This document shows, in pieces, positions 4,566-53,580 of a stretch of 64,000 bases of DNA. Source of the DNA: Chloroflexota bacterium (GTDB lineage Bacteria; Chloroflexota; Chloroflexia; Thermomicrobiales; UBA6265); the NCBI GenBank assembly GCA_023389575.1, contig JAEWEG010000045.1:13230-77229 (forward strand), written 5' to 3'. Under the pieces are notes generated by a model. It saw only the letters and a program-made list of their open reading frames with translations, did no database searches and was not told the origin of the DNA. The position numbers and the translations under genes are program-made. Position 1 is the stretch's first letter; each line of letters starts with the position of its first letter.

Positions 4566-5426
4566 GTGAGCTTTCGTCCGGGAAGCAAGACCACGGCCAG
4601 GGTCTGGAAAATCACCAACGACGAGGGGCGGTTCCGCCGCGATCACCTGGCGACCGAAGAGCCGCTGGAAATCCGCCTGATCACGCGGGATGAAACCCAT
4701 ACCGTGGCGATCACCATGCGCACTCCAGGCAACGACTTCGAGCTTGCCGCCGGGTTCCTCCACGGTGAGGGCATCATCCACGACCGGGACGAGATCGCCA
4801 GGATCAGCTACTGCGTCGATCCCGGCATTGACGCCGCCCAGCAGTACAACATCGTGAATGTCGCGTTGCGCGGCGACGCCTCACCAGATCTGGCGCCGCT
4901 CGAACGGCATTTCTTCACCTCCAGCGCGTGCGGGGTATGCGGCAAGGCATCCCTGGAGGCGCTGCACCTGCGGGCGAATCCCGCCATCCCGCCGGGCCCC
5001 GAGGTCCCGATCGAGGTGATCTACGGGTTGCCGGATAAGTTGCGCCAGGCGCAGGGCATCTTCGAGGACACCGGTGGGCTTCATGCCGCCGCGCTGTTCG
5101 ACACCTGTGGAAACCTGCTTGCGCTCCGCGAGGACGTTGGCCGGCACAACGCGCTGGACAAGCTCGTTGGCTGGGCGCTCATGGAGGACCGCCTGCCACT
5201 CAACCAGCACATCCTGCTGGTCAGCGGGCGCTCCAGCTTTGAAATCCTCCAGAAAAGCCAGGCGGCGGGAATACCGATCGTCTGCGCCATTTCCGCGCCC
5301 AGCAGCCTGGCCGTGGACCTGGCTCGCGAGTTCGGGATGACGCTGGTCGGCTTTCTGCGAGACCAGCGTTGCAACGCGTATACCGCGCCTGAACGACTGC
5401 TGCTCGCCTCATCCCCGAGTCCCTAA
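4566..5426 (+). CDS. fdhD: Formate dehydrogenase accessory sulfurtransferase FdhD
   Basis: GTG 4566 follows GAAAGAAAGG. FdhD hallmarks: EEPLEIRL, SSACGVCGK, EDVGRHNALDKL, LVSGRSSFE. The length (286 aa) matches the family, whereas the ORF-track start at 4284 would add about 94 atypical residues. Confidence 0.85.
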   Translation: MSFRPGSKTTARVWKITNDEGRFRRDHLATEEPLEIRLITRDETHTVAITMRTPGNDFELAAGFLHGEGIIHDRDEIARISYCVDPGIDAAQQYNIVNVALRGDASPDLAPLERHFFTSSACGVCGKASLEALHLRANPAIPPGPEVPIEVIYGLPDKLRQAQGIFEDTGGLHAAALFDTCGNLLALREDVGRHNALDKLVGWALMEDRLPLNQHILLVSGRSSFEILQKSQAAGIPIVCAISAPSSLAVDLAREFGMTLVGFLRDQRCNAYTAPERLLLASSPSP

Positions 5427-5428
5427 CG

Positions 5429-6040
5429 ATGGAGTCCCAACGCCTCCGGACCCTTCTGGACCAGAGCGCCGCGCTGCACGATCATCTCTGCCCGCGACAG
5501 GTACTCGGCGTCCGGATGGGCATGCTCGCCGCTGAACTGTTCCATTTGGAGCTTCCCCGTAAAGACAAGCGCCTGCTCACCATCGTCGAAACCGACGGCT
5601 GCTTCGCCGATGGAGTGGCCGTGGCGACCGGCTGCTGGCTCGGGCATCGGACGCTGCGGCTCGTGGACCACGGCAAGATCGCGGCCACGTTCGTCGACAC
5701 CGCCACCAATCACGCCCTGCGCGTTCACCCGTCCCAGGAATCTCGACCCCTGGCCGCGCGATACGCGCCCAACGCCCCGGACCGTTGGCATGCCTACCTG
5801 GAGGGCTACCAGCACATGCCAGTCAGCGAACTGCTCGTCGTCGATCGTGTCTTGCTCGATCGCCCGGTCGAATCGCTGATCAGTCACCACGACCGCCGCG
5901 CAACCTGCGAAAACTGCGGCGAGGAGATCTTCAACGAGCGCGAGGTCGCGGTGAATGGGCGAACCCTGTGCCTGGGTTGCGCCGGTCAACCGTATCTGAC
6001 AGTGCTGACGGACGCCGTGGAATGCTCGCATGGCGGATAG
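5429..6040 (+). CDS. FmdE-domain protein with C-terminal zinc ribbon
   Basis: CPRQVLGVRMG and ETDGCFADG (FmdE-type Cys motifs), plus CENCGEEI...CLGCAG. The start lies 2 nt after the fdhD stop. Confidence 0.7.
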   Translation: MESQRLRTLLDQSAALHDHLCPRQVLGVRMGMLAAELFHLELPRKDKRLLTIVETDGCFADGVAVATGCWLGHRTLRLVDHGKIAATFVDTATNHALRVHPSQESRPLAARYAPNAPDRWHAYLEGYQHMPVSELLVVDRVLLDRPVESLISHHDRRATCENCGEEIFNEREVAVNGRTLCLGCAGQPYLTVLTDAVECSHGG

Positions 6041-6653
6041 CGATCTGTCGGCGGCCGTACTTGTCGGCGGACAGTCACGGCGGATGGGCGAGAACAAGGC
6101 GCTGTTGCGTCTGGAACCTGGAGGCCCCACCGTCATCGAAACGGTCGTCCAGAAGCTGCGAGCCGTCGCCGGCGACATCATGCTGGCAGGTTGCGATCCG
6201 GAGCCGTACGCCTTTCTCGGCCTCCCGCATATTCCCGACGTGGAACCGGGCATTGGCGCCCTCGGCGGGGTCCACAGCGCGCTCACGACCATGACGACCC
6301 CTCACGTGCTGATCGTGGCCTGCGACATGCCCTTCCTGAACGCGGACCTGCTCCGCTACATGGCCGCTCAGCCGCGCGACTATGACGCGCTGGTTCCAGT
6401 ATTCGACAGGCCGCAGCCGCTTCACGCGATCTACGCCAAAATGTCCCTGCCACTCATCGAGCGGAGCATCCAGGCGGGCGACCTGCGTGGCACCGGCTGG
6501 CTGGCCCAGGCCAACGTCCGCGCGATCGACCGCGAAACCATGCGACGATACGATCCGGACCTCCTGTCGTGCTTCAACATGAACACCCCCGCCGATGTCG
6601 CCCACGCAAGGCGCATCGCCACGGCAAGCAAGGGCTCGATCCCCGGCGCATAA
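6030..6653 (+). CDS. mobA: Molybdenum cofactor guanylyltransferase MobA
   Basis: N-terminal LVGGQSRRMGENKALL and VACDMPFL. The start overlaps the fmdE-like gene by 11 nt. Confidence 0.8.
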   Translation: MADSDLSAAVLVGGQSRRMGENKALLRLEPGGPTVIETVVQKLRAVAGDIMLAGCDPEPYAFLGLPHIPDVEPGIGALGGVHSALTTMTTPHVLIVACDMPFLNADLLRYMAAQPRDYDALVPVFDRPQPLHAIYAKMSLPLIERSIQAGDLRGTGWLAQANVRAIDRETMRRYDPDLLSCFNMNTPADVAHARRIATASKGSIPGA

Positions 6654-20124: not shown

Positions 20125-20694
20125 TCAGCCTCGATCTTCCAGCCAGTACTCTGGGAAACGCTCCCTGAACTCCTCGACGGTTAGTCCGAACCACAGCAGA
20201 TCGCTGAACTCACCGCGCCTGTACACGCTGCGACGCTGCCGTCCCTCGAGTTGAAACCCCAGCGACTCGTGCAGCGCCGTGGATGCCGGGTTGATCGCGT
20301 ACACTCCCACATTCGCCTTCTGGTACCGCAACTCCTGGAAGTAATACCGGAGTACAAGGCAGATCGCTTCCTTCGCGTATCCCTTCTGGCGATGCTCCTC
20401 GAACACGTGGAGGCCGTAGCTCACCAAGCCCACCCGGCCGTCGCAATGGTGCGTCGCGATGCCGCCCACCAGTTCCCCGGCCAGCGATTCCATCTGGAAC
20501 GAGAACTCCTGGTTCTCGAACCCCTGCTGGGCCTTCCGTCCTGTCCACTCCTCTTCTCGCGCCAGCGATCCCGGGGGATATCGCATGTCGAGCAGGTCCG
20601 ATTCCATTGCCTGGTTGAAGGCATGGTGGGCGGCGGCATCGCCTGGCTCAACCGACCGCAACCGAATGAGACGCCCTTCCCAATAATTCTTCAC
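20125..20694 (-). CDS. GNAT family N-acetyltransferase (RimJ/RimL-like)
   Basis: GTG start. GNAT core: VFEEHRQKGYAKEAI, then NPASTALHESLGF. Confidence 0.75.
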   Translation of the reverse strand: MKNYWEGRLIRLRSVEPGDAAAHHAFNQAMESDLLDMRYPPGSLAREEEWTGRKAQQGFENQEFSFQMESLAGELVGGIATHHCDGRVGLVSYGLHVFEEHRQKGYAKEAICLVLRYYFQELRYQKANVGVYAINPASTALHESLGFQLEGRQRRSVYRRGEFSDLLWFGLTVEEFRERFPEYWLEDRG

Positions 20695-20823
20695 AAAATC
20701 GCTATCCTCTTTGAACGGGGCTCCCGCCTATCCAACTGAAAGTGCCACATGATGCGAGAGCGCGGTACCATTACCCTTGCACAATCTCTGGCCCATGCGC
20801 GACATCATACCGGACGCAGGTGA

Positions 20824-21273
20824 ATGGACGATCAGGTTATCAGCCAAACAGATATCGTTCAGCGTGAGGCAGTGCCCTCCGCGAACCCACCCGCGGACCG
20901 CCAGGCAACCGTGCCCGGCTTTTCGCGACTGCTCGAGCGTCTGCGCGACGAGCGAGGCTGGTCCAAGGCCGACCTCGCCAAGCGGGCCGGGCTCGATCCC
21001 AGCTCCATTACCCGATTCGAACAAGGGAATCGCCACCCCGACCGGGACACGGTCCTTCACCTGGCGAACACCATGTCACTGCCGTTGGTCGACCGCGACC
21101 TTCTCCTCGCCTCGGCCGGGTATCGCTCCGACCTGTGGGACGATCCGCTGCTGGTCGATCTCTCCCACCTGTTGACCGATCGTGATATCGCCGATCACGT
21201 GCGCGAAGAGGTGCGGACCATCCTTCGAGCCGCGCTGGCCTATGGGCGGCTCAGCCGTCTCGACTCCCCGTAG
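20824..21273 (+). CDS. XRE-family helix-turn-helix regulator
   Basis: HTH segment RDERGWSKADLAKRAGLDPSSITRFEQG. The C-terminal 70 aa are unassigned. Confidence 0.7.
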   Translation: MDDQVISQTDIVQREAVPSANPPADRQATVPGFSRLLERLRDERGWSKADLAKRAGLDPSSITRFEQGNRHPDRDTVLHLANTMSLPLVDRDLLLASAGYRSDLWDDPLLVDLSHLLTDRDIADHVREEVRTILRAALAYGRLSRLDSP

Positions 21274-21304
21274 TCCGGCGCCCACGCCGGCAGGCTTCGA
21301 ACGC

Positions 21305-22642
21305 ATGCGTATCGCACCCGCTCCTCGACCACCCAGCATCGCATACCTGTCGAAGCTCCTGGCTTCCCTGGTCGCCTCCCTGGCGCTCGCCCTGTGTGGA
21401 CTTCCCTGGCTCGCGACACCTCCCGCCGTCGAAGCCACCGCGCCAGCCGCCTTCGCCCAGGACCAGCCAGAGCTGCCTCCAGTCGAACTCGACGCACTCG
21501 ACGGCAACCGCTGGTCGCTCACCAGCATCCAGGTCGCGCCGGGCCAGGTGATCCGCATCACCAACCGGGGGGCGATGGCCCACGACTTCACCATCGACGA
21601 ATGGGCCGTCAGCGTTCCCATTCCCACGCTGGAGACGGTCGAAGTGGTCGTGCCGGAGAATCTCACTCCAGGTCAGCAGTTCACGTACTACTGCACCGAG
21701 CCCGGCCACGCGGTGCTTGGCCAAACCGGAACCATCACCATTGTCACCCCCGAGCAGGTCCTCGCCTCCCAGCCCAACCGGGAAGGCACTTCCGCGCCCC
21801 AGCGCGTGGTGATCCAGACTGGCGACGATTTCTCGTTCTCCCCGGCGGCCATCGAGGTGACTCCGGGCCAGGTCATCGAGGTCCAGAACAACGGCGTGCT
21901 GGAACACCATTTCGTCGTCGACGAATGGGCGTTGAACGAAACGATTTCCGCCGGCGAGGTCAAGCTGGTGCAAATTCCGGCCGACGTCCGCCCCGGCGAT
22001 ACCTTCGTCTTCTATTGCTCGGTGCCCGGCCATCGGCCTGGCGGCATGGAAGGCACCATCACGATCCTGGAACCGACGGATTCCGGTGACGGTGGCGGAC
22101 CGTCCCTCCGCTCAGACGCCGACCTCAGCCAGTTCCTGCCCTCCGCCGACGCGCTAGGCAGCGGTTGGTCGCTGGTGCGAACGGGCAACGCCCGCGCCGT
22201 TCTGCCCGAATACGATAACGTGAGTGCCCGCGTGTTCCCTGGGGAAGGTCGTGGCGCGACCTATGTCGGACCGGCGGGCAGTCGCACGACGGTCATCGTC
22301 CTGCCGTTCGCGCCGCTCGACGCGCCCGCCAACCAGATCGAGGACGCCGTGCTCGCGGTACAGCTCATGCTGATGGTTGAGTGGGAAGCGGACCTCCGGC
22401 TCGGCGCCTCGCTCAACCAGATCGCGCCACCAGCCGGCTGCGACGCCGCCAACCGCGCCTCGGGAATCACCCGCGTCTACACGCTCCCGGCCGGGTCGAC
22501 GGTCTGCCAGCTGCGAAGCGTCGGGGTGGCGATCTTCGTCGCCGTGGAGGGCCAGTACGCTGAGTGGAGCGGGGTTGAAGCGGCCGACCAGGTTATCGCC
22601 CGGTTGCTCCAGCGAGCATCGACCTGGCGCCCTGCGGATTGA
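21305..22642 (+). CDS. Secreted protein with two cupredoxin domains plus an unassigned C-terminal domain
   Basis: ATG 21305 gives a signal-peptide-like N-terminus (LASLVASLALALCGLPWLA). Domain 1 has MAHDF...YYCTEPGHAVLGQ. Domain 2 has LEHHF...FYCSVPGHRPGGM. The last ~190 aa carry no recognisable motif. Confidence 0.75.
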   Translation: MRIAPAPRPPSIAYLSKLLASLVASLALALCGLPWLATPPAVEATAPAAFAQDQPELPPVELDALDGNRWSLTSIQVAPGQVIRITNRGAMAHDFTIDEWAVSVPIPTLETVEVVVPENLTPGQQFTYYCTEPGHAVLGQTGTITIVTPEQVLASQPNREGTSAPQRVVIQTGDDFSFSPAAIEVTPGQVIEVQNNGVLEHHFVVDEWALNETISAGEVKLVQIPADVRPGDTFVFYCSVPGHRPGGMEGTITILEPTDSGDGGGPSLRSDADLSQFLPSADALGSGWSLVRTGNARAVLPEYDNVSARVFPGEGRGATYVGPAGSRTTVIVLPFAPLDAPANQIEDAVLAVQLMLMVEWEADLRLGASLNQIAPPAGCDAANRASGITRVYTLPAGSTVCQLRSVGVAIFVAVEGQYAEWSGVEAADQVIARLLQRASTWRPAD

Positions 22643-22720: not shown

Positions 22721-23674
22721 TCAGACGCCTACCGGCCGGTAGAACTCGACGACCCCAAGGCCTTCGATGCCTAACGCCGGTGGGTCGAGATGCACGCTGG
22801 TCACGTTCAGCCCGGCGAACGGCGTGATCCCGAACCACCGGTTGAGATTCTCCTGCGGACGGTTGTACCCCTTGATCAGTGGCGTCACCCAGGCCACCAC
22901 CCGCACATCCGTCTCTATCGGGCGATCATCTCCGGTTCGCGCCCGGTACCGGGCGATGAAGCGCTCCACGGCCGCCGCGCCCACGATGATCGCGCTCTCG
23001 CTCACCGCCTGGCTCATCGTCGCCTTGTCGATGATGTCGTCCGCCCCGGCCACCCGGACCGACAGCGTCACGGAATCAGCCCCGGCCTGCGCCTCCAACT
23101 GGGGCCCCACGATCGAATCCACGATGTCCTGTGTGGCCGAGAGATCCGCGCTCATCACCACATCGCCGTCGCCGGTGTACGACGGAATGACGAACGATCC
23201 GGCGGGGTAACGGGCCGAATCAGCCTCCGGAACGTGCTTTTGCTTCTTCAACAGCAACGCCGGAATCCCGGACATCACCGAATACATCGACCCGACCGGA
23301 TACCCCGACATGCCCGGCACCACCAGCAGGTTTACCTGCTTCTCATGGAGGTAATCAGCCGCTTCCTGGACGTGATCCCGGATGTAATCGGGCCGGGCCG
23401 CGGTTTTGAGCAGGCTCCCGTACTCGATGCCGGCCCCGCCGCCCGGAAACATCGCCGTCTGGCCCAGGCGCAGCAACCCGGCCAGCATCGACTTCGCGCC
23501 CGGCGTCAGGTCGCATGCCTCCAACGCGTCCTTCAGCGTGGCGAACGGAATCACGGACGTCATCTCCGCGACCTGTTGCGGATCGATCGATTCGTGCGGG
23601 CGCTCGTACCGCTTGAGGATGGTGCCATCCTCCGCGATGGGGTGTAAGCCGTGATTCGGGTCCTGGTCTGCCAT
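22721..23674 (-). CDS. Hypothetical protein with weak type-I phosphoribosyltransferase-like motifs
   Basis: ATG 23674 follows AAGGAAA. NLLVVPGMSGYPVGS and VRVAGADDIIDKATMS loosely resemble the PRTase fold and PRPP loop. It is co-directional with the ABC permease and 45 nt downstream of it. The coding call is confident; the functional label is not. Confidence 0.5.
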   Translation of the reverse strand: MADQDPNHGLHPIAEDGTILKRYERPHESIDPQQVAEMTSVIPFATLKDALEACDLTPGAKSMLAGLLRLGQTAMFPGGGAGIEYGSLLKTAARPDYIRDHVQEAADYLHEKQVNLLVVPGMSGYPVGSMYSVMSGIPALLLKKQKHVPEADSARYPAGSFVIPSYTGDGDVVMSADLSATQDIVDSIVGPQLEAQAGADSVTLSVRVAGADDIIDKATMSQAVSESAIIVGAAAVERFIARYRARTGDDRPIETDVRVVAWVTPLIKGYNRPQENLNRWFGITPFAGLNVTSVHLDPPALGIEGLGVVEFYRPVGV

Positions 23675-23719
23675 GCTCGGGTGAATTTCCTTGCTTGCGC
23701 GAGTAGTCAAAGGTTCGGG

Positions 23720-30860: not shown

Positions 30861-32861
30861 ATGTCCATCGCCATGAACTCACCGGCGACTCCAACGGCCC
30901 AGCCAACGCCAGGGCCCGCTCACACGGCTCTCGCCTGGCTCATCCGCAACGGACTGCTCCTCGGCGCGGCCTGCGCCTGGCTCGCGCTCGCATCCGCGTT
31001 CGTCCTCGAACAATGGACCGATGCTCCCCGCGCGCTGGTCCTGGGCTTCTACATCGCCGCGTACATCGCCGGCGGCGCCATCGCCACGCGAGCCGCCGTC
31101 AGCGACCTCCTGTCCGGCATCGTCAACATCGACCTGCTCATGGTCCTTGCCGCCATCGGCGCGGCCATTCTCAACGCCTGGGCCGAAGGCGCCATGCTTC
31201 TCGCCCTCTTCTCCACGTCCAACGCGCTGGAACACTACGCGCTGGGTCGTACCCGGTCGGCGGTCCGCTCCCTGATGGACCTGCGCCCGGCGACGGCTCG
31301 GCGCCTGGTCGATGGCGCCGAGGAGGTGGTGGCCGTCGAGGTCCTGGAACCGGGCGACCAGGTCGTCGTCCGGCCCGGCGAGAACATCCCGGCCGACGCG
31401 GTCATCGTCAGCGGCCAAACCGAGGTCAACCAGGCCGCCATCACGGGCGAATCCATGCCCGTCGCGCGCGCCGTCGAGGACCCGGTCTTCGCCGGCACCA
31501 CGAACGGTTCCGGGGCGTTCACCGCCCGCGTCACCCATCCATCCTCGGAAACCACCATCGCCCGTATAGCCCACCTGGTCGAGGAAGCCCAGTCCCGCAA
31601 GAGTCGCGCCGAGCGATTCACCGATGCCTTCGAGGGCCCGTACGCCATCGGCGTGATCACCATCGCGGTGCTCGTCGGCGTCATCCCCATGCTGCTGGGA
31701 GCCGACCGTGGCGATGCCTTCTACCGGGCAATCACCCTGCTTGTGGTCGCCTCGCCCTGTGCCCTCGTCATCTCCACGCCGGCCGCCACCCTCTCGGCCA
31801 TCGCCCGCGCCGCTCGCGGGGGCGTCCTGGTCAAGGGTGGTTCGCATCTCGACGAACTGGGCGTCATCGACATCATCGCCTTCGACAAGACCGGCACCCT
31901 TACCTTAGGCAAACCCGCTGTCACCGATGTGGTTGTCTTCGGTTCGACGCCTGAAATCGACGCGCTTCGCCTCGTCGCCTCGGCCGAACATCTTTCGGAG
32001 CACCCCATCGCCCAGGCGATCATGCGGCACGCCTCCGACCAGGGCATTACCCTCGATGACCCAGTTGATTTCACCGCCGATCCCGGGCGCGGCGTCACCG
32101 CGTCCATCGAGGGCCGCCGGATCGCCGTTGGCAACGAAACCCTCTTCAATGAACTGGGTATCCGCCTGCCCCAGCACGTGGTCGATCGCGCCAACACCAT
32201 CCGTACTCAGGGGCGCACCGCCATCATCGCGGGCGACGGTGGGGACCTCCTGGCGGTGATCGGCGTCGCCGATCAGGTCCGCCCCGGCGCGGCCGAGGCG
32301 CTGGCCGAACTTCGGGACCAGGGCATCAAGCGCATCGTGATGCTCACCGGCGACAACGATCTTGTTGGCCAGGCCATCGGCCGCCAACTCGGGCTCGACG
32401 AGGTCTTCGCTGATCTCCAACCCGAGGAAAAGCTCGTCAAGATCGAGGAACTCCGGAAACAGGGCCGGGTCGCGATGGTCGGCGACGGCGTGAACGACGC
32501 TCCCGCGCTCGCCTCGGCCGACCTGGGCATCGCCATGGGCGCTGGCGGCACCGATGTCGCCCTTGAAACCGCCGACGTCGTCCTCATCACCGGCGATCTG
32601 CGGCGAATGCCATTCGCCATGGGTCTCAGCCGGCGGATGCGGCGCATCATCCGACTCTCCATCGGCTTCGCCCTGACGGTCATCGCCACTCTGGCGACAC
32701 TCACGCTCACCACCGGTATCCCCCTGACGCTCGGCGTGATCGGCCACGAAGGCAGCACCGTCATCGTCGTCCTCGCCGGTCTCACCCTGCTCGCGTACGG
32801 CCAGGGCCGAGGTTCCAGGAAACCGAAGCCCGCGACGAGTCCCGCGCCATCGGGCGCTTAA
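30861..32861 (+). CDS. Heavy-metal P-type ATPase, P1B-4 subclass (Co/Zn/Fe-type)
   Basis: DKTGTLT, GDGVNDAPAL, TGES. The transmembrane SPC motif (VASPCALVIS) and HEGST motif define P1B-4. There is no N-terminal CxxC metal-binding domain. Confidence 0.9.
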   Translation: MSIAMNSPATPTAQPTPGPAHTALAWLIRNGLLLGAACAWLALASAFVLEQWTDAPRALVLGFYIAAYIAGGAIATRAAVSDLLSGIVNIDLLMVLAAIGAAILNAWAEGAMLLALFSTSNALEHYALGRTRSAVRSLMDLRPATARRLVDGAEEVVAVEVLEPGDQVVVRPGENIPADAVIVSGQTEVNQAAITGESMPVARAVEDPVFAGTTNGSGAFTARVTHPSSETTIARIAHLVEEAQSRKSRAERFTDAFEGPYAIGVITIAVLVGVIPMLLGADRGDAFYRAITLLVVASPCALVISTPAATLSAIARAARGGVLVKGGSHLDELGVIDIIAFDKTGTLTLGKPAVTDVVVFGSTPEIDALRLVASAEHLSEHPIAQAIMRHASDQGITLDDPVDFTADPGRGVTASIEGRRIAVGNETLFNELGIRLPQHVVDRANTIRTQGRTAIIAGDGGDLLAVIGVADQVRPGAAEALAELRDQGIKRIVMLTGDNDLVGQAIGRQLGLDEVFADLQPEEKLVKIEELRKQGRVAMVGDGVNDAPALASADLGIAMGAGGTDVALETADVVLITGDLRRMPFAMGLSRRMRRIIRLSIGFALTVIATLATLTLTTGIPLTLGVIGHEGSTVIVVLAGLTLLAYGQGRGSRKPKPATSPAPSGA

Positions 32862-35535: not shown

Positions 35536-35988
35536 TTACACCGATCGTCGCTTCCACAGGAGGACGATGGCGGCGCCGCCAACCACGCTAGGCAGCATCT
35601 GCAGCCACGCGATCATGGGCGCCAGGCCCACGTCCCCCGAGGTGTCACGCACGGTCAGCCCCGTCAGGGCATAGGCGATCGCCCCCAGGAGCAGTACGGG
35701 AGCAACCCAGCGAATCCAGTCCTTACCGGATCGCACGGCCCAGATCGTGGCCAGCCAGCTGACGATTCCAACGGCCCCGGCGGAGGCCAGGATAATCAGG
35801 TAGAGGTTGACCGCGTGATTGATTTCGCCGTTGGTGTAGGAGGGATACCCCGACCGGATGTGGTCGGCCATCACTCCCCGGTTCAGGAAGGGAAAGACAG
35901 TGGCGATGCCGGTCAGGATGAGACCGGACCACAACACAACGAGGGTCAATGGTGACGAGGTTCCCCGCCGGGAATCTGAAGCGAACAT
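35536..35988 (-). CDS. Small integral membrane protein (about 4 TM), unassigned
   Basis: ATG 35988 follows GAAAGGA. The 150-aa product has four hydrophobic segments. The longer ORF-track N-terminus looks non-coding. Confidence 0.5.
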   Translation of the reverse strand: MFASDSRRGTSSPLTLVVLWSGLILTGIATVFPFLNRGVMADHIRSGYPSYTNGEINHAVNLYLIILASAGAVGIVSWLATIWAVRSGKDWIRWVAPVLLLGAIAYALTGLTVRDTSGDVGLAPMIAWLQMLPSVVGGAAIVLLWKRRSV

Positions 35989-36341
35989 GGGCAGGAAAGT
36001 CCTTTCACGTTTCAGCGGTCGCGGAACAACCGGCGCTCGCTCGGCGTCTCCCCGCGACGACAAGGGAGACATTTTAACGAACGATTGCCGCATTTCAACC
36101 GCCCCTGGTCGGGGAGAGGTGGACGAGGGGCATGATGAGTCGCCGGACGAAGTCCTTCCGCCGTCAGGCGGTGTTCCTGTGGCGGAGGTGGCCATCTGGG
36201 GTGGAGAAGACCAGCGCGGCGACGCTTCCCCCGGCCCGTCCACGGTGAGGTGCGAGCGGAACAGAGACCTGACGCCAAGAGCGGCCGGAGCACGTGCACC
36301 CGACCGCCCTCTTCACTTCAAGAATCAGAGCTTGTGAACAG

Positions 36342-37001
36342 CTACCGCTCGTCCTCGCCCAGCCGGAGGAAGGTCAGCACGGCCAGCACCCGCCGGTGTA
36401 CCGACTCCGCGTCCTCCAGGCCCAGCTTGGTAAAGATTCCCCGGATGTGCTTCTCCACGGTGCCCTCGCTCACGAACAACGCGTCGGCGATGGCATTGTT
36501 CGTCCGGCCCTCGGCCATCAGGGCTAGCACCTCCTGCTCACGCTGCGTCAGCGAGGACAATCGCTCGTCGCGTCGCCGCCGGGTCACGAGTTGGGTGACC
36601 ACTTCCGGGTCGAGCACGGTCCCGCCAGAAGCCACCCTCCGCACGGCCACCACGAACTCACGCACGTCGGCCACGCGGTCCTTCAGCAGGTAGCCAACGC
36701 CGGTTGTGCCGCCCTCCAGCAGTTCGGCGGCGTATCGCTCTTCCACATACTGGGAGAAGACCAGGATCGGCGTGTGCGGGACCTTGCGGCGCGCCTCGAT
36801 CGCCGCGCGCAGGCCCTCGTCACGAAACGTCGGCGGCATCCGGATGTCCACGATCGACACGTCGGGCCGCTCGCGCGTCACCACCTCGACGAGATCGTCG
36901 CCGTTGTCGACGGCCGCTATCACCTCGAAGTCGTTCTCGGTCAGGAGCCGCACCAGCCCCTCCCGGAGCAACACCGCGTCTTCCGCTATCGCAACCCGCA
37001 T
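36342..37001 (-). CDS. NarL/LuxR-family two-component response regulator
   Basis: REC domain (MRVAIAEDAVLLREGL...VDIRMPP) plus LuxR HTH (LTQREQEVLALMAEGRTNNAIADALFVSEGTVEKH). Confidence 0.9.
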   Translation of the reverse strand: MRVAIAEDAVLLREGLVRLLTENDFEVIAAVDNGDDLVEVVTRERPDVSIVDIRMPPTFRDEGLRAAIEARRKVPHTPILVFSQYVEERYAAELLEGGTTGVGYLLKDRVADVREFVVAVRRVASGGTVLDPEVVTQLVTRRRRDERLSSLTQREQEVLALMAEGRTNNAIADALFVSEGTVEKHIRGIFTKLGLEDAESVHRRVLAVLTFLRLGEDER

Positions 37002-37125
37002 CGCCTGCTCACCGCCTGGAAATGAGTATCCCTGTCAGGAAGCGATGTGCTCCCCCAGCCCAGAGCATACGGGAGTGGGTGCTCATTCACCAAGCGCGAG
37101 GGCTGACGGCTCGCCCCGAACGCGA

Positions 37126-37155
37126 ACACCCCGCGCCAGAAATAGCGCGGGGTGT
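37126..37155 (-). other. Intercistronic stem-loop between the histidine kinase and response regulator genes
   Basis: ACACCCCGCGC-(8 nt)-GCGCGGGGTGT, an 11-bp stem, inside the 183-nt HK-RR spacer. Confidence 0.5.
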
Positions 37156-37184
37156 GGTCGGATTCTTCGGGTTATGGGCGCGGC

Positions 37185-38552
37185 TCAGCCGCAGGGAATC
37201 TCCACGTAAATCGTCGTACCCTTGCCCGGCGGGCTGGAGAGTGAGAACCGCCCATCCAGGGCCAGGATCCGGTCCTGCAGGCCTCGGAGCCCCGAGCCGT
37301 GGCCCAGATTGGCCCCGCCGCGGCCGTTGTCGGAAATCTCCAGGATCAGCCAGTTGCCCCTGCGGTGGATATGCACCCTCGCGCGGCTCGCCTGGCTGTG
37401 CTTGGCGATATTCGTCAGCGACTCCACCACCACGAAGTAGGCCGTTCCCTCGACCTCTTCCGGCAGCCGGCTCTTGAGGTCAACATCGACTTCCACCGGC
37501 ACCGGCGACCGCCCGGCGATCGCCGAGATCGCGGCGTCCAGCCCACGGTCGGTCAACACCGCCGGGTGAATGCCTCGCACCAGGTCCCGCAGGTCGGCCA
37601 GGATCCGCTTCGACTCTTCATGCGAGCTATCGATCAGCAGCTTCGCCCCCTCGGGGTCCTTCTCCATCTTGTCCTGAAGCCGCCCCAGGTCCATCGCCAG
37701 GGCCACCAGTCGTTGCTGCGCACCATCGTGCAGGTCGCGCTCGATCCGCCGGCGCTCCAGGTGCATCGCTCGCATCACCGCCGAGCGAGCCTCGGTCAGT
37801 TCCTCCACCCGCTCGATGAGGACCTCTTCCTGCGAAGGCGCCAGGAATCGCAGTCCGACCTTGCCGTTCACGATCGCCATCAGGTTGACCAGCACGCTGA
37901 ACGGCACCACCAGGATCAGGCCGACCGCTCCAGCGACCACCGCCTCCGGGAATGACGAGATGTTCCATCCGTTGATGTTGTGGTGCCCGCCCAGGATGAA
38001 GATCAGCGGTGCGATGGCGTAGGAAACCGGCTGGAAGACGAACACCAGGCCCAAAATGCCCATTGGCAGCAGCAGGAGCAAATAGGCCAGGTCCCGCCAG
38101 AGTTGCGGATTCCGCAAAAGTCCCCAGGCCTTCTTCCAAGGCGCGCCGTCCTCCGGAAAGTACCGGTACGGGCTCGCGATCGAGACGCCCAGGAACACCC
38201 GGAGGCGGTCCCGTTCCATTTGCGCGGTCCAGATCGTGATCGCAACCAGCGCGGCCAGCAGCGGGACTCCAACCCAGATGATGATCGTCGCCAGGCCAAC
38301 CGCCGCGACCGTCACGAAGAACACCAGCCAGATAAGGCCGAGGATGAACGTCGTGATCAGGAACAGCGAATCGCTGACGACCTTCCAGGAATTGACGATG
38401 GGCAGGCCATGCAGCGTGCGCCATATGGTCTCGGTGGAGAACCGGCGCGCGACCGGCGTCAACCGGTGGGAGACGGCATCCGACATGAACGGCACCGAGG
38501 TGAACTGGTCTATGCGTTGTTGACTTTCGTCGTTGTGGGTACTGAGCCTCAT
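37185..38552 (-). CDS. Sensor histidine kinase (HisKA_3 / NarX-LiaS type) with multi-TM N-terminal sensor
   Basis: H-box LHDGAQQRL and ATPase boxes ESLTNIAKHS, ISDNGRGGA, GSGLRGLQDR. ATG 38552 follows AGGAAA. Confidence 0.85.
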   Translation of the reverse strand: MRLSTHNDESQQRIDQFTSVPFMSDAVSHRLTPVARRFSTETIWRTLHGLPIVNSWKVVSDSLFLITTFILGLIWLVFFVTVAAVGLATIIIWVGVPLLAALVAITIWTAQMERDRLRVFLGVSIASPYRYFPEDGAPWKKAWGLLRNPQLWRDLAYLLLLLPMGILGLVFVFQPVSYAIAPLIFILGGHHNINGWNISSFPEAVVAGAVGLILVVPFSVLVNLMAIVNGKVGLRFLAPSQEEVLIERVEELTEARSAVMRAMHLERRRIERDLHDGAQQRLVALAMDLGRLQDKMEKDPEGAKLLIDSSHEESKRILADLRDLVRGIHPAVLTDRGLDAAISAIAGRSPVPVEVDVDLKSRLPEEVEGTAYFVVVESLTNIAKHSQASRARVHIHRRGNWLILEISDNGRGGANLGHGSGLRGLQDRILALDGRFSLSSPPGKGTTIYVEIPCG

Positions 38553-39007: not shown

Positions 39008-41227
39008 TCAGCCGCTGGCTGATCGCTCGATCTCGCGGATCGCCGCGAGCACTCGCTCCGGCGTGAACGGCAGGTCGCTCAGCCACACCCCGGTCGCGTC
39101 GTGGATGGCGGCCGCCACCGCCGGGGCAAATGGCACGAGGGGCATTTCCGCCATGCCCCGTGCTCCGAACGGCCCGTTCGGATCGGCCAGCTCCAGGATC
39201 ACCGGCACGATCTCGACGGGCATGTCCATCGTCGTCGGCAGCAGGTACGTGCTGAAATGGGGCGTCATCAACCGCCCATCCCGCACGATCAGGTTTTCCA
39301 GCAGTGTGTACCCTACCGCCTGGGCCAGGCACCCCTCGATCTGGCCTTCCACCTGCTGCCGGTTGATCGCCGTACCGACGTCGTGCGCGCTGACAATCGA
39401 CCGCACGCTGACGCCGCCCGTCCGGGTGTCCACGTCCACCGCCACCGCCTGGCTCACGTAGCCGTAGCAGAAGTTCGGCGTGCCGGCACCGGTAACCGGG
39501 TCGAGCGGCGTGGTGGCGGGTGGCCGAAAGTTCGCGGTCGCCACCACATGCCGGTCCTCGCTGTTGCGGTAGGCCTCCAACGCGTCCCTCGCCGCCGCGT
39601 GAACCGCCCCGCCCGCCAGCAGCGTCAACCGCGAAGCCGAGGCCGATCCCGCGTTCGGGGCCAGCGCGCTGTCGTCCGTCACCATCTCGATCAGGCTGGT
39701 GTCCACGCCCAGCACCCCGGCCGCGATCTGCCGCATCGCAAGATGAGTGCCCTGCCCCACCTCCGCCGCGCCGACCCGCACGATCGCCCGCTCGATTTCG
39801 CCTCGCCCGAACACCTCAACCGTTGCGGTCGCGTTGTCCGGATACCCGAACGAGTAGCCAACGTTCTTGATGCCCGAGGCGATGCCAAAGCCACGCCGGA
39901 TGTGTGGCGGCAGCGGCTCGTCCCGCAGCGCCGCGAACCGCGACTCCCCCTCGGCCATCGCCGCCTCGAACACCGGCAACGCCGAAACACTCTCGGGAAG
40001 TCGGTACTGGGTCGGCTCCAGGCTGCCTTCGCGGTACAGGTTGATCCGGCGAATCTCCGCCGGGTCCATGCCCAGTGCCTCCGCCAACCGGTTCACCATC
40101 GACTCGGCGGCGAAATGCGCCTGCGGTGCACCGAATCCGCGGAAGGCGCCGCTCGGCACATGGTTCGTGTAGGCCACGTATCCATCGGTCGCGATGTGCT
40201 CGATCTCATACGGTCCAGTGGCGAACACCGCCGCGCACTTCATGACCTCGGCCGAGGTCGAGGCGTACGCCCCGCCATCCGCCACCACCCTCGACCGCGC
40301 CCCGACGATCCTGCCGTCCCGGTTCGCCGCCCAAGTGCACTGGATCCGCATCGGATGCCGCTTGTGGTGCCCCAGCATCGATTCCTCACGGGTCCATTGC
40401 AGGGCCACCTTCCGGTCCGGGTGGCTCTCCCGCAGCGACCACGCCGCCAGCGCCAGCACATGCTGCATCGAGAGGTCTTCTCGACCCCCGAACGCCCCGC
40501 CAATGGCGTTGTAACGGACTGTGACCCGCTCCTCGGGCAGCTTCAGCATGGCCGCGATCTGTCGCCGGTCCTCATGGAGCCATTGGCCCGCCGTCTCGAC
40601 CACCAACTGGCCGTCGTCCTCGATCCAGGCGGTTCCCGCCTCCGGCTGGAGGAAGGCATGTTCCTGCCAGGTCGTCGAGAACTCCCCCTCCAGCACAATG
40701 TCCGCCGCCGCGATCGCCGCGTCCGCGTCGCCCTTGCGAATCGGCACATGAATCAGCACGTTGGAGCCATGCGAGGCGTTCACCAGCGGGGCGTCCTCCC
40801 GCATCGCCTCCTCCGGGTCGAGCACCGGCGGCAGGTCCTCGAACCGGACATCGACCGCCTCCACGCCCGCCCGGGCCGCGTCGACCGAATCGGCCACGAC
40901 AAGCGCGACCTTGTCGCCGCTGAACCGGACTTCGTCGCCAACCGCCACCAGCACTGGCTGGTCGTTCTCGATCAGGCCGAAGGCGTTGAACGGAATGTCG
41001 TTCGCCGTCAGCACCCGCACGACTCCGGGAACGGCCAGTGCCCTCTCGATGTCGATACGAAGAACCCGCGCCCGGGGTCGGTGCGCGAACACCACCGCCG
41101 CGTGCAGCATCCCGGCCCTGATCCTGTCCGCTGGATACGTCGTGGCGCCGTTCACCTTGCCGGGCGCGTCCGGCCGGCGATGCGATTCCCCAATGACGGC
41201 GGGCGGCCGAGTGATCTTTAGGCTCAT
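39008..41227 (-). CDS. Xanthine dehydrogenase/aldehyde oxidase-family molybdopterin-binding subunit
   Basis: GGAFGGRED, AFRGFGAPQ (XDH/AOX-type rather than the CODH-type AYRGAGR), and GARGMAEMP with the catalytic Glu context. Confidence 0.85.
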   Translation of the reverse strand: MSLKITRPPAVIGESHRRPDAPGKVNGATTYPADRIRAGMLHAAVVFAHRPRARVLRIDIERALAVPGVVRVLTANDIPFNAFGLIENDQPVLVAVGDEVRFSGDKVALVVADSVDAARAGVEAVDVRFEDLPPVLDPEEAMREDAPLVNASHGSNVLIHVPIRKGDADAAIAAADIVLEGEFSTTWQEHAFLQPEAGTAWIEDDGQLVVETAGQWLHEDRRQIAAMLKLPEERVTVRYNAIGGAFGGREDLSMQHVLALAAWSLRESHPDRKVALQWTREESMLGHHKRHPMRIQCTWAANRDGRIVGARSRVVADGGAYASTSAEVMKCAAVFATGPYEIEHIATDGYVAYTNHVPSGAFRGFGAPQAHFAAESMVNRLAEALGMDPAEIRRINLYREGSLEPTQYRLPESVSALPVFEAAMAEGESRFAALRDEPLPPHIRRGFGIASGIKNVGYSFGYPDNATATVEVFGRGEIERAIVRVGAAEVGQGTHLAMRQIAAGVLGVDTSLIEMVTDDSALAPNAGSASASRLTLLAGGAVHAAARDALEAYRNSEDRHVVATANFRPPATTPLDPVTGAGTPNFCYGYVSQAVAVDVDTRTGGVSVRSIVSAHDVGTAINRQQVEGQIEGCLAQAVGYTLLENLIVRDGRLMTPHFSTYLLPTTMDMPVEIVPVILELADPNGPFGARGMAEMPLVPFAPAVAAAIHDATGVWLSDLPFTPERVLAAIREIERSASG

Positions 41228-42651
41228 ACCACACCGCCCTTCGCGGCCTGGTCAACGGCGGCCAGGATCTTGCTGTACCCGGTACAACGGCAGATATTCC
41301 CGCTCAGGGCCACGCGCGTGTCGAGGACGTCAGGCACTGGCCGTTCGTCCAGCAACTTCGCGCCGGCCATCACCATCCCTGGTATGCAGAACCCACATTG
41401 CACCGCCGCCTGGTCGATGAATGCCTCCTGGAGTGGATGCAACCCACCCTCGCTCCGATCGCTCGTCGCGGCCAGCCCCTCGATGGTGGTCACGGACGCT
41501 CCCTTCGCCTGACCGGCCGGAACCAGGCAGGACATCACCGCCCGGCCGTCCAGCCACACCGTGCAGGCGCCGCATTCGCCCTCGGCGCAGCCTTCCTTGG
41601 CCCCGGTCAGGCCCGCGTGGTCGCGAATCGCGTCCAGCAGCGTCAGTTGCGTCGCCGCCGCGTCCCAGGTGACTCGGGCTCCGTTCACCTCCACCACCAT
41701 GGATTCGAGCGGCCCTCCTGCGCATGGGCTTTGGGGATATGTCGTGCGAGATTCGAGCAAAATCGGCCGCTCGGGGAATCCCTCTCGCTCCCGGCCCTCT
41801 CCCAGGCGAAGCAACGCGTCCTCCACCAATCGCTGGAGCACCGAGTTCCGGTAATCCGCGCTTCCCCGGATGTCCCCAATCGGAGAAACATCCTTCAGCG
41901 CAACGCGTCCAGCCTCCGCGCGAACCTCCGGCGTCAGTGCCTTGCCCGCCAGGAAGGCCTCGGTCGCCGATCCGCGTACAACCGTCGGCGCGAGGCAGCC
42001 AAACGCCACTCTCGCCGACCTCACCACGTCCCCATCGAACGCCGCCACGATCGCGAAGTGAATCACCGAGATCGCCTGCGCCCGGCGAAGCCCTACCTTC
42101 ACGAACAGCCCACGCTCGCCAGAGGCGGGTTTCGGGATCAGGATCGAGGTCACAAGTTCGTCCGGCTCCACCACCGTCTGTCGAAACCCCGGGTAGAACT
42201 CCGCGATCCGAACCTGGCGCTGGCCGCGCACGGACGCCAGCGTCACAACCGCGTCCAGCGCCATCAGCGCCGATATCGTGTCGTTCGCCGGCGAACCGGT
42301 CACGATGTTCCCTGCGACCGTGGCCCTCGACCGCAATTGCGGCGCGCCGATTTCAAGGCATGACTGGGCCAGTGGCAGGGCATCGCGCACGCATGCCTCG
42401 CTCGAGATCACGTCGTTATGCGTCGCCAGCGCGCCAAGCTCGATACCATCCGCGGTCTCGGCGATGCCTCGCAGCGCTTCGATCCGGGTGACGTCGATCA
42501 GCGTCGTGGTTGGCTTCACCCCTCGCGAGAGTTCCACCACCACGTCCGAGCCACCGGCCACGACTCGAGCCGATTCGCCGAGTCGTGCCCGTAGCGCCAG
42601 CGCCTCATCCAGCGTTGTGGGTTGGTAATACGTTTGCCAGGTGCGACGCAT
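41224..42651 (-). CDS. Fused FAD-binding and [2Fe-2S] subunit of the XDH-family enzyme
   Basis: N-terminal FAD-binding-5 type region (VVAGGSDVVVEL). C-terminal ferredoxin motifs CAEGECGACTV, CGFCIPG, NICRCTGY. 4-nt overlap with the large subunit gene. Confidence 0.85.
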   Translation of the reverse strand: MRRTWQTYYQPTTLDEALALRARLGESARVVAGGSDVVVELSRGVKPTTTLIDVTRIEALRGIAETADGIELGALATHNDVISSEACVRDALPLAQSCLEIGAPQLRSRATVAGNIVTGSPANDTISALMALDAVVTLASVRGQRQVRIAEFYPGFRQTVVEPDELVTSILIPKPASGERGLFVKVGLRRAQAISVIHFAIVAAFDGDVVRSARVAFGCLAPTVVRGSATEAFLAGKALTPEVRAEAGRVALKDVSPIGDIRGSADYRNSVLQRLVEDALLRLGEGREREGFPERPILLESRTTYPQSPCAGGPLESMVVEVNGARVTWDAAATQLTLLDAIRDHAGLTGAKEGCAEGECGACTVWLDGRAVMSCLVPAGQAKGASVTTIEGLAATSDRSEGGLHPLQEAFIDQAAVQCGFCIPGMVMAGAKLLDERPVPDVLDTRVALSGNICRCTGYSKILAAVDQAAKGGVV

Positions 42652-52278: not shown

Positions 52279-53580
52279 TCACATCAATGCGCCAGCCGAA
52301 CTGGTCCACGCGGTCAACCGGGTCAGCGCGCCCGAAATCATCAGGATCCCGATCGCGATGATCAGCACCGCGCTGATTCGCTCCAGGCGTGGCAACCACG
52401 GCCCGAATCCCTTGCGATGGCGCATAAACCGGTCGATCAGCACCGTTCCCAGCAGGAACGGCACGGCCAGGCCCAGCGAGTAGATCGTCAGCAACAGCAC
52501 CCCCTGCCCCATCGAGGCGGTGGCAGCCGCCAGGGTCAGGATGCTGGCCAGGGCGGGGCCGATGCAGGGCGTCCACCCGGCTCCGAACGCCATCCCGATC
52601 GCGAAGGTCCCAATCGGCCGGGCCGGTTTCCCGGACTGGCCGAACGATGGCCGCACGATGCGGTCCAGCGCCGCGATCCGGAACACGCCGAGCATGTGCA
52701 GGCCCATCACCAGCAGGAGCACGCCACCGATCCTGGCGATCCAGTCGCGATACTCATGCAGCAGGCCGCCAATCGCCGAGGCGGACGCCCCCATCGCGAT
52801 GAACACCACGCTGAACCCGCCGACGAACAGCAGGCCGTTTCGCAGGGCGATTCGCCGCGTCTTCTGGCGCTGATCGGCCTGCTGGCGGCTCATCTCCTCG
52901 GCGCTCACGCCGGTGATGTAGGCCGCGTAGGTTGGAATCAGCGGAAACACGCAGGGCGACAGCACGCTCAGCAATCCCGCCGCGAACGCCGCCAGCAGCC
53001 CCACGGTGGCAACCGTCGGAATCGCGTCGCTGTCGACCGCGCCACTGCTGGAGAGCGCCGATTCGATCAGGCTCCGGTTTTCAGGGCTTCCCGCTTCCAG
53101 TTCGCCCTTCCACTGGTAGGCGATGTTGCCGGCCCGGTCGATCAGGATCGTCTCCGGCACGCCAGACGTGCGGAACGCCTGCTGGAAATCCCCGGGCTCG
53201 TCCCGCACGAGGGTGAAATTCACCCCCAGGTCGCTGGCGAAGTCGGCGATCCGCTGGTTGGAGCCACCGATATCGAGGCTCACCCCGATCACGTGCAGGC
53301 CGTCCTCGCCGTACTCGTCGGCGAGCGCCTGGAGTTCCGGCATCTCGCGCTTGCATGGCTCACACCAGGTCGCCCAGATGTTGACCAGCACCACCTCTCC
53401 CCGCAAATCACGCAGGGAGAGGTCGCCGGAACCATCGAGGAGTGGCGCGGTCAGGTCGGGCGCCTCCTCGGCGCCGGCGGGGGTTCCGGCGATCCCACCG
53501 CCGAGCAACGCGACCAGGAATGCGAGGACGATCCCGCCGCGAAACGAGCGTTTTGAAAGGTCACATCTCGGGCGTTGCAT
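52279..53580 (-). CDS. TlpA/ResA-like thioredoxin fused to CcdA (DsbD-family) thiol-disulfide transporter
   Basis: WATWCEPC thioredoxin motif, then CcdA helices with LSPCVFPLIP and GWTPCIGP. ATG 53580 overlaps the pcuAC-like gene by 20 nt. Confidence 0.85.
   Translation of the reverse strand: MQRPRCDLSKRSFRGGIVLAFLVALLGGGIAGTPAGAEEAPDLTAPLLDGSGDLSLRDLRGEVVLVNIWATWCEPCKREMPELQALADEYGEDGLHVIGVSLDIGGSNQRIADFASDLGVNFTLVRDEPGDFQQAFRTSGVPETILIDRAGNIAYQWKGELEAGSPENRSLIESALSSSGAVDSDAIPTVATVGLLAAFAAGLLSVLSPCVFPLIPTYAAYITGVSAEEMSRQQADQRQKTRRIALRNGLLFVGGFSVVFIAMGASASAIGGLLHEYRDWIARIGGVLLLVMGLHMLGVFRIAALDRIVRPSFGQSGKPARPIGTFAIGMAFGAGWTPCIGPALASILTLAAATASMGQGVLLLTIYSLGLAVPFLLGTVLIDRFMRHRKGFGPWLPRLERISAVLIIAIGILMISGALTRLTAWTSSAGALM

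Follow-up and report, generated by a model that had tools for sequence, protein, structure and literature searches.

An exported three-domain cupredoxin protein of Thermomicrobiales with predicted Gln-axial and Met-axial sites and an unnamed C-terminal domain

A 64,000-nt stretch of a Chloroflexota genome of the order Thermomicrobiales (GCA_023389575.1, contig JAEWEG010000045.1, positions 13,230 to 77,229; hereafter the window) encodes an exported protein of 445 aa (21305–22642, + strand, from ATG to TGA) that joins two tandem cupredoxin domains to a C-terminal domain of an unnamed family. At the position of the axial copper ligand, the first cupredoxin domain has a Gln and the second a Met. 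We give a probability of about one half to the reading that the protein is an extracytoplasmic accessory electron carrier, with two copper sites and a docking domain, in the cell envelope of Thermomicrobiales. Cupredoxins, axial Gln ligands (even in Chloroflexota, in auracyanin D), and XRE regulators such as the one encoded upstream are already known. What is new is the three-domain architecture, the combination of Gln and Met sites within a single chain whose axial ligands have been swapped during evolution (orthologues include natural variants with Glu and His), and an undescribed exported domain family that is recurrently joined to cupredoxins.

The two copper domains differ in how readily they are recognized. 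Domain 2 (residues 164–256; 21794–22072, + strand) matches the Pfam families Copper-bind (PF00127; 42.3 bits, cutoff 21.2, residues 165–254) and Cupredoxin_1 (PF13473; 34.7, cutoff 27) and has the type-1 set His201, Cys238, His243, and axial Met248 (codon ATG, 22046–22048), the last three in the loop CSVPGHRPGGM. Domain 1 (residues 56–150; 21470–21754, + strand), when submitted alone (residues 51–152), passes the Copper-bind cutoff only marginally (21.4 versus 21.2 bits); its predicted ligands are His93, Cys130, His135, and axial Gln140 (codon CAA, 21722–21724), with the loop CTEPGHAVLGQ. The AlphaFold2 model of the full-length protein, which has a predicted local distance difference test (pLDDT) score of 85, shows both as all-beta domains of eight strands in a Greek-key beta-sandwich, with pLDDT values above 90. 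An upstream His followed by a Cys-Xn-His-Xn-Met loop, as is typical of type-1 cupredoxins, is present in both, with Gln as a natural axial variant in domain 1. No more than five His are present in the whole protein, and each belongs to one of the two sites: four are predicted ligands, and the fifth, His202, adjoins the ligand His201 and is near-invariant in the family. The copper domains are followed by a flexible linker rich in Gly, Ser, and Asp (residues 257–270; 22073–22114, + strand), which has pLDDT values below 50 for residues 260–270 and differs in sequence and length between homologues.

Pfam matches, modelled fold, and ligand sets thus agree on the two tandem cupredoxin domains that had been proposed from the sequence alone (hereafter the original prediction). 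Its description of both as azurin- or auracyanin-like was slightly off: they are cupredoxins, but azurin matches the ligand loop only, and better matches are found among plastocyanins and the N-terminal cupredoxin of the copper nitrite reductase (CuNiR) of Hyphomicrobium.

The placement of Gln140 is supported by three independent alignments. Domains 1 and 2 align without gaps over 84 residues, which pairs His93 with His201, Cys130 with Cys238, His135 with His243, and Gln140 with Met248. Among the members of the family, the Gln column of domain 1 holds a Met in 8 of 91 sequences (e.g., CDEPGHAEAGM in P0060), and in profile alignments with the solved cupredoxins 4hcf, 6tfd, 2dv6, and 6kol the same column falls on their axial Met. 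Because the three alignments agree, Gln140 is assigned to the axial ligand position, as originally predicted for this domain together with the axial Met of domain 2. The competing possibility that a different Met in the loop serves as the axial ligand of domain 1 does not apply, as the loop contains no Met; Met91, which lies near His93, varies among homologues.

A stellacyanin-type axial Gln in a type-1 site lowers the redox potential. The label "stellacyanin-type" in the original prediction was right about the axial Gln but too narrow in its attribution to stellacyanins, because auracyanin D of Chloroflexus aurantiacus also has an axial Gln, in a green, low-potential site of +90 mV (PMC10804444). 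On the strength of stellacyanin chemistry and of auracyanin D, a lower potential is expected for domain 1, and by analogy the two sites should differ in potential.

Homologues of the protein were sought among 5.8 billion proteins. The search returned 92 clusters, of which 90 represent members (full-length or fragments) of the three-domain family, with identities of 42–87%. The conservation of the gene in about 90 clusters argues against a chance open reading frame (ORF). The homologues, which bear the names "plastocyanin", "hypothetical", or "cupredoxin domain-containing" if they are named at all, stem from metagenome-assembled genomes (MAGs) of Thermomicrobiales and Chloroflexota. A set of 185,579 species-representative genomes contained the full architecture in 14 loci (L010–L023), some of them clipped by contig ends, and all hosts were Thermomicrobiales, Sphaerobacteraceae, or Chloroflexia MAGs; the closest of these (87% identity) belongs to an uncultured Sphaerobacteraceae bacterium. 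No cultured host turned up in the homologue and genome searches, and neither Thermomicrobiales cupredoxins nor the three-domain architecture were the subject of any paper found in a literature search.

A census of the ligands in 91 family sequences identifies domain 2 as the indispensable site. Its ligand set is His-Cys-His-Met in 85 sequences, with an axial Glu (GEEG instead of GMEG) in the other six, and its equatorial His-Cys-His is invariant in nearly all of them. In domain 1, 64 sequences have an axial Gln, 8 a Met, 3 a His, and 1 an Arg; the other 15 have lost the site, with Cys replaced by Ser and the loop His by Asp. In a neighbour-joining tree, the forms that lack the domain-1 site constitute one deep clade and the Met forms one subclade; changes to His, Met, and Glu are scattered on the tips. 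Such a combination of fixed equatorial and labile axial ligands is the pattern expected for a tuning of the potential.

The carriers of the axial Glu in domain 2 are P0021, P0023, P0029, P0041, P0048, and P0049 (e.g., L001:6001–7293). The exchange of Met for Glu takes two nucleotide substitutions and is seen on several branches of the tree; to our knowledge, natural type-1 sites with an axial Glu have not been described. An axial His in domain 1 occurs in P0015, P0038, and P0044, and an axial Arg in P0087. Proteins with three to six or more related tandem cupredoxin repeats are also encoded by Chloroflexota and Thermomicrobiales (L025:4001–6088, L029:4001–5710, L026:4–1347, and L068:4001–5668); they have neither the XRE gene nor the C-terminal domain.

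The census also bears on the question of whether domain 1 binds copper at all. If domain 2 alone were a working copper site, domain 1, even in its Gln form, would serve as a structural spacer or be a duplicate in decay, which would effectively leave a single-site cupredoxin with two accessory domains. This is in line with the loss of Cys and loop His in the 15 relatives mentioned above, whose proteins are otherwise conserved, with the marginal recognition of domain 1 by Pfam, and with the His and Arg variants at its axial position. Nevertheless, the 64 sequences of the clade that includes the window protein have kept the full His-Cys-His-Gln set, down to an identity of about 45% and with conserved flanks (G-Q-E/T-G), which argues for selection on the domain-1 site. 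Auracyanin D provides a precedent that a site of this kind binds copper (PMC10804444), and we regard an inert domain 1 as unlikely.

The C-terminal alpha/beta domain comprises residues 271–440 (22115–22624, + strand). The approximately 190 C-terminal residues that could not be assigned in the original prediction indeed match no known domain: residues 265–445 have no match in Pfam at E ≤ 10, no family identity in NCBIfam, and no match in a sequence-profile search of the PDB (best E 0.19). Nor is the architecture widely annotated, as it appears only under "plastocyanin" or "hypothetical". Modelled alone, the domain folds with confidence (pLDDT 90; predicted template modelling score [pTM] 0.87) into an alpha/beta sandwich whose antiparallel sheet has six strands and which ends in a long helix. 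A Foldseek search of the PDB yielded nothing at E ≤ 1e-3, and a viral structure library gave no meaningful match. The best neighbours in the PDB all belong to one fold class (TiME, Mog1, DcrB, Apa, LpqN, MTC28, and SciW), albeit with weak matches (E 2e-3 to 9e-2; template modelling [TM] scores 0.30–0.49; 10–13% identity), among which TiME ranks best (E 2e-3, TM 0.40–0.49). The domain is best described as a member of an unnamed exported family whose predicted fold may be Mog1/PsbP-like, a class that is weakly matched.

A profile search of 1.8 billion representative proteins recovered 124 relatives of the C-terminal domain, none of which has a Pfam assignment for it. Besides the di-cupredoxin family, about 100 of them are stand-alone secreted proteins of 180–220 aa with signal peptides, and those that are named are "hypothetical proteins" of Thermomicrobiales. 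The stand-alone members share the motifs LPxAxxLGxGW, YxGPxGxR, and PPxGC...R..G...C, including both Cys; the invariant residues of the domain include W288, R292, F311-P312, G322, P323, G325, R327, Cys379/Cys401, E415-G416, and D428. In other relatives, the domain precedes the cupredoxin (P0168, P0217, and P0249) or is part of larger forms (P0156 and P0174), so that fusions in three or more domain orders are on record. That such fusions recur is the strongest indication of a joint function of the C-terminal domain and cupredoxins.

The loci of six stand-alone members gave no functional lead, because their contexts are mutually unrelated (prophage-like regions, a restriction-modification system, peptidases, and one unrelated XRE gene). 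Two stand-alone genes sit in regions resembling mobile elements: L090:6001–6588, with genes for a terminase, a DUF3987 protein, and an integrase, and L094:4457–5062, which adjoins an MmeI-type restriction-modification gene and DUF3854/DUF3987 genes.

A catalytic role of the C-terminal domain was also considered. In such a redox enzyme, the domain would bind a substrate or use its Cys pair as a redox-active disulfide, with the cupredoxins relaying electrons. Functional coupling is suggested by the independent fusions of the family to cupredoxins in several orders, and Cys379/Cys401, Arg292, Arg327, Arg384, and Trp288 are invariant and common to the stand-alone members. By contrast, a catalytic metal site is precluded by the lack of any His beyond the two type-1 sites; all structural neighbours, though weakly matched, are non-enzymatic binding or scaffold proteins; and most members of the family are stand-alone secreted proteins of about 195 aa in unrelated, sometimes prophage-like contexts. 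Moreover, the simplest interpretation of two Cys that face each other across strands of an exported domain is a structural disulfide. We consider an enzymatic function very improbable.

Export is indicated by a Sec-type signal peptide or N-terminal anchor (residues 1–51; 21305–21457, + strand) with a charged n-region and a hydrophobic helix (residues 12–31). In the AlphaFold2 model, this helix is followed by a disordered Pro/Ala stretch of low pLDDT (residues 34–52); a putative cleavage motif (AFA|QD) is located at residues 49–53. Signal peptides occur throughout the di-cupredoxin family, and those of the homologues are ordinary Sec signal peptides with an AxA|Q site a few residues before a conserved LPPV motif. 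The signal peptide of the original prediction is thus borne out by modelled helix, hydropathy, and the N-termini of the homologues, although the unusually long c-region of the window protein is such that the helix may be either cleaved or kept as a tether. A lipoprotein was rejected, because "LALC" is a poor lipobox and its Cys varies among homologues.

The upstream gene (20824–21273, + strand) is a 149-aa ORF for an XRE-family regulator, separated from the cupredoxin gene by an intergenic spacer of 31 nt (21274–21304, + strand), precisely the arrangement of the two ORFs that had been described before. An alternative GTG start of the cupredoxin ORF at position 21182 was discarded, because it overlaps the XRE gene and is at odds with the N-termini of the homologues, which begin at the signal peptide. 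The helix-turn-helix (HTH) domain of the regulator (residues 33–94; 20920–21105, + strand) belongs to Pfam HTH_31 (50.9 bits, cutoff 27) and also matches HTH_3 (42.3, cutoff 23). Profile matches in the PDB (phage repressor, C-proteins, HipB) cover only this part, and the same search found no structural homologue of the C-terminal half (21106–21270, + strand), which is conserved as LLAxAG[YF]RSxxWDDP...R...MAxAY. The orthologues are 47–89% identical over all 148 aa, including the C-terminal half, and contain no conserved Cys or His.

The association of the two genes is strong in one direction only. An XRE orthologue is located immediately 5' of the cupredoxin gene, on the same strand, in all 19 loci with a family member and is missing from all 66 other cupredoxin loci that were retrieved. 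The spacer measures 5–124 nt among orthologous loci, and no terminator-like site was found between the two genes, which are likely co-transcribed. Flanking genes are shuffled between clades, but the pair stays together. The reverse test, a metagenome scan with an XRE profile, produced 39 loci with a full-length orthologue; the cupredoxin gene lies directly 3' in 22 of them and is absent from 14, while three end too early. Three of the loci without the gene (L097, L112, and L114) have the synteny of the window (isomerase-like and GNAT genes, XRE gene, gene for a 329-aa protein, permease gene) with the cupredoxin gene alone missing, and two (L115 and L116) have the order of the window, minus a GNAT match, without the cupredoxin gene. 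In L097, about 140 nt remain between the XRE gene and the gene for the 329-aa protein. The five loci represent a clean presence/absence polymorphism. Since the XRE gene persists in syntenic loci that lack the cupredoxin gene, the latter is accessory and the regulator is not dedicated to it. The proposed pairing of the two genes therefore holds in that the cupredoxin gene always follows an XRE gene, but fails in the opposite sense, and a strictly dedicated regulator is refuted by the 14 unpaired loci.

The region upstream of the XRE gene (20760–20813, + strand), a candidate promoter/operator, contains two blocks that are conserved in a DNA alignment of seven loci, GCGCGGTACCATTA at 20760–20773 and CGACATCATACCGG at 20800–20813. 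They share the half-sites CGGTA/TACCG in inverted orientation and might, judging from their conservation, be control sites. A sigma-70 consensus was not matched upstream of the XRE gene, and the repeat tool found no inverted repeat in a search for an operator in this region.

The XRE gene is preceded by a GNAT gene (20125–20694, − strand), and the cupredoxin gene is followed by the gene for the 329-aa protein (22721–23710, − strand), to which Pfam assigns no family and which gives no more than a faint adenine-phosphoribosyltransferase-like signal. This gene adjoins a Bmp-type nucleoside ABC transporter operon in many loci of Thermomicrobiales (50–93% identity) and probably belongs to that operon. 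Other neighbours encode a xylose-isomerase-like TIM barrel (sugar-phosphate isomerase-like), an SMP-30/lactonase-like protein, and the Bmp-type nucleoside ABC transporter. Farther away, at 30861–32861 (+ strand), is a gene for a P1B heavy-metal ATPase with an SPC motif but no HMA domain, which scores as Zn/Cd-type and is orthologous (54% identity) to an ATPase whose gene adjoins the XRE gene in L004. A link to copper via this P-type ATPase was rejected on account of the SPC motif, the Zn/Cd-type score, and the inconsistent adjacency.

Several other genes of the window were recorded. Near the P1B ATPase gene are genes for a sensor kinase (HisKA_3) and a response regulator of the LuxR type, in a group recorded for 30861–32861 (+ strand) and 36342–38552 (− strand); in L004, the same trio of ATPase, HisKA_3, and LuxR genes lies directly upstream of the XRE gene. 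The product of 52279–53580 (− strand) is an AhpC/TSA-redoxin domain fused to a DsbD/CcdA-type transmembrane domain, likely a supplier of extracytoplasmic thiol-disulfide reductant, and that of 39008–42651 (− strand) is a molybdenum hydroxylase of the xanthine/CO dehydrogenase family to which an FAD/2Fe-2S subunit is fused. Two ORFs with a high G+C content at third codon positions (5423–6292, − strand, 289 aa; 35536–36243, − strand, 235 aa) have no family in Pfam or NCBIfam. The G+C content is 64–68% across the whole window, in which neither Rfam families nor tRNAs were found.

The surroundings and the XRE protein also bear on a function in copper handling, i.e., the sequestration, buffering, or delivery of copper in the envelope by a CopI-like protein instead of electron transfer. 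Cupredoxin folds serve in copper-resistance proteins, and the window protein, which is secreted and encoded by an accessory gene, shows a weak partial match to CopI (NCBIfam NF051440; E 5e-6); the heavy-metal P-type ATPase is encoded 8 kb away and adjoins the XRE gene in L004. However, the CopI match reaches only 26.3 bits (cutoff 280) over a partial stretch, and membership in CopI was rejected; the protein has no His- or Met-rich region, with its His confined to the two sites; the ATPase is best interpreted as a pump for Zn/Cd and not Cu, and is a neighbour only inconsistently; and the XRE protein lacks any conserved Cys or His with which a metal might be sensed. This function is accordingly quite improbable in our view.

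For the accessory electron carrier that we favour, the parts can be arranged as follows. Domain 2 would be a conventional His-Cys-His-Met type-1 copper site and form the conserved core of the family; domain 1 would provide a second, type-1-like Gln-axial site whose potential should be markedly lower and whose spectrum should be perturbed ("green"). A single protein would then carry two copper centres of differing potential, in a serial or a parallel arrangement. The C-terminal domain, which is weakly Mog1/PsbP-like and probably held by a Cys379–Cys401 disulfide, may be a non-catalytic binding module that docks the carrier to a partner or retains it in the envelope, and the XRE protein would probably control the locus without being dedicated to the cupredoxin gene. 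The carrier function is supported by complete type-1 ligand sets at canonical positions in both domains and by the proximity of domain 2 to the electron-transfer cupredoxin tethered to CuNiR and to plastocyanins; the binding module is supported by the Foldseek neighbours of the C-terminal domain, which are exclusively envelope, binding, or scaffold proteins. Copper binding, potentials, intramolecular electron transfer, disulfide, docking, and regulation are what we infer from these features.

Four observations weigh against such a carrier. The absence of the domain-1 Cys and His from 15 of the 91 relatives means that the family can do without a second copper, and the pTM of only 0.63 for the full-length model leaves the packing of the domains uncertain. 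The cupredoxin gene is dispensable, as it is missing from 14 of the 36 decidable XRE loci (approximately 39%), and no respiratory or copper-homeostasis gene is linked to the locus among its neighbours, nor was a redox partner found.

If both sites bind copper, the protein would offer a natural side-by-side comparison of a Gln-axial and a Met-axial type-1 site in one polypeptide. Versions of this scaffold with Met, His, or Glu, or with no site, are available in the orthologues and would be useful for understanding how axial ligands set the potential. It is conceivable, if doubtful, that the family as a whole represents a natural "redox-tuning series", a modular two-copper wire in which the axial ligands are repeatedly exchanged and the previously undescribed envelope domain targets a specific partner or extracellular substrate; in that case, it would comprise the first natural type-1 sites with an axial Glu or His, together with a new docking domain specific to Thermomicrobiales. 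The analysis further defines an unnamed exported family (about 100 clusters at 50% identity, without a Pfam entry), and it provides a candidate for an accessory electron carrier in Thermomicrobiales, whose respiratory chains are poorly known. It overturns nothing, as axial Gln in a cupredoxin of Chloroflexota had already been documented for auracyanin D.

Among the known systems, auracyanin D resembles the window protein, by description, in its phylum, the His-Cys-His site with an axial Gln, and its type as an exported electron carrier, but it is a single domain, without a second, Met-type site and without a Mog1/PsbP-like domain. Of the defining features of auracyanins (a single membrane-tethered azurin-like domain in Chloroflexota, similar in sequence to auracyanin A/B), the phylum fits, whereas the window protein has three domains; no auracyanin chain is among the best 60 PDB profile matches of either cupredoxin domain. 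For the non-phototrophic Thermomicrobium, a role of auracyanin homologues as respiratory carriers has been proposed (PMC2615216). Stellacyanin and other phytocyanins have the axial Gln in a type-1 site and the lowered potential in common with domain 1, but they are a plant family and differ in loop spacing, lineage, and architecture. Membership in this group was rejected, because PF02298 (Cu_bind_like) has no match at E ≤ 0.1, nor at E ≤ 10 for domain 1, and the lineage is bacterial.

The best sequence match of both domains is the N-terminal tethered cupredoxin of CuNiRs of the Hyphomicrobium denitrificans type (2dv6, 6tfd/6tfo). Domain 2 matches 2dv6 and 6tfd with an E of 3e-10 and shares with them the loop YCSxPGHRxxGMxG and the spacing C-x4-H-x4-M; plastocyanins are also close. 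In CuNiR, this cupredoxin is a built-in electron relay that feeds a nitrite reductase core with type-1 and type-2 sites; by contrast, the window protein has no catalytic core, and the overlap of the whole proteins is poor (TM 0.17–0.19). The tandem arrangement of cupredoxins is shared with the two-domain laccase SLAC, which provides the top Foldseek matches of the full model (E 1e-10), but the TM scores are only 0.2–0.3 at a root mean square deviation of about 13 Å, and the domains of SLAC comprise about 140 aa versus about 90 aa in the window protein. Matches of the full model to laccases and three-domain nitrite reductase lie, as a whole, at TM 0.17–0.31 and 12–16 Å. A multicopper oxidase or nitrite reductase was rejected despite these top matches, because the protein has no HxH or HCH motif anywhere and His only at its two sites, and therefore no trinuclear or type-2 catalytic centre; the trinuclear cluster of multicopper oxidases is built by four HxH motifs, HCH among them.

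The C-terminal domain has its closest, if weak, counterparts among the Mog1/PsbP-like envelope proteins (TiME [Rv3705c], LpqN, Apa, and MTC28 of mycobacteria, DcrB, and yeast Mog1), with which its predicted fold appears to share the alpha-beta-alpha sandwich and the antiparallel sheet. These proteins are exported, non-catalytic binding or scaffold modules (PMC8378821). They have no relation to the window protein at the sequence level, and the new family is set apart by its conserved motifs LPxAxxLGxGW, YxGPxGxR, and PPxGC...C.

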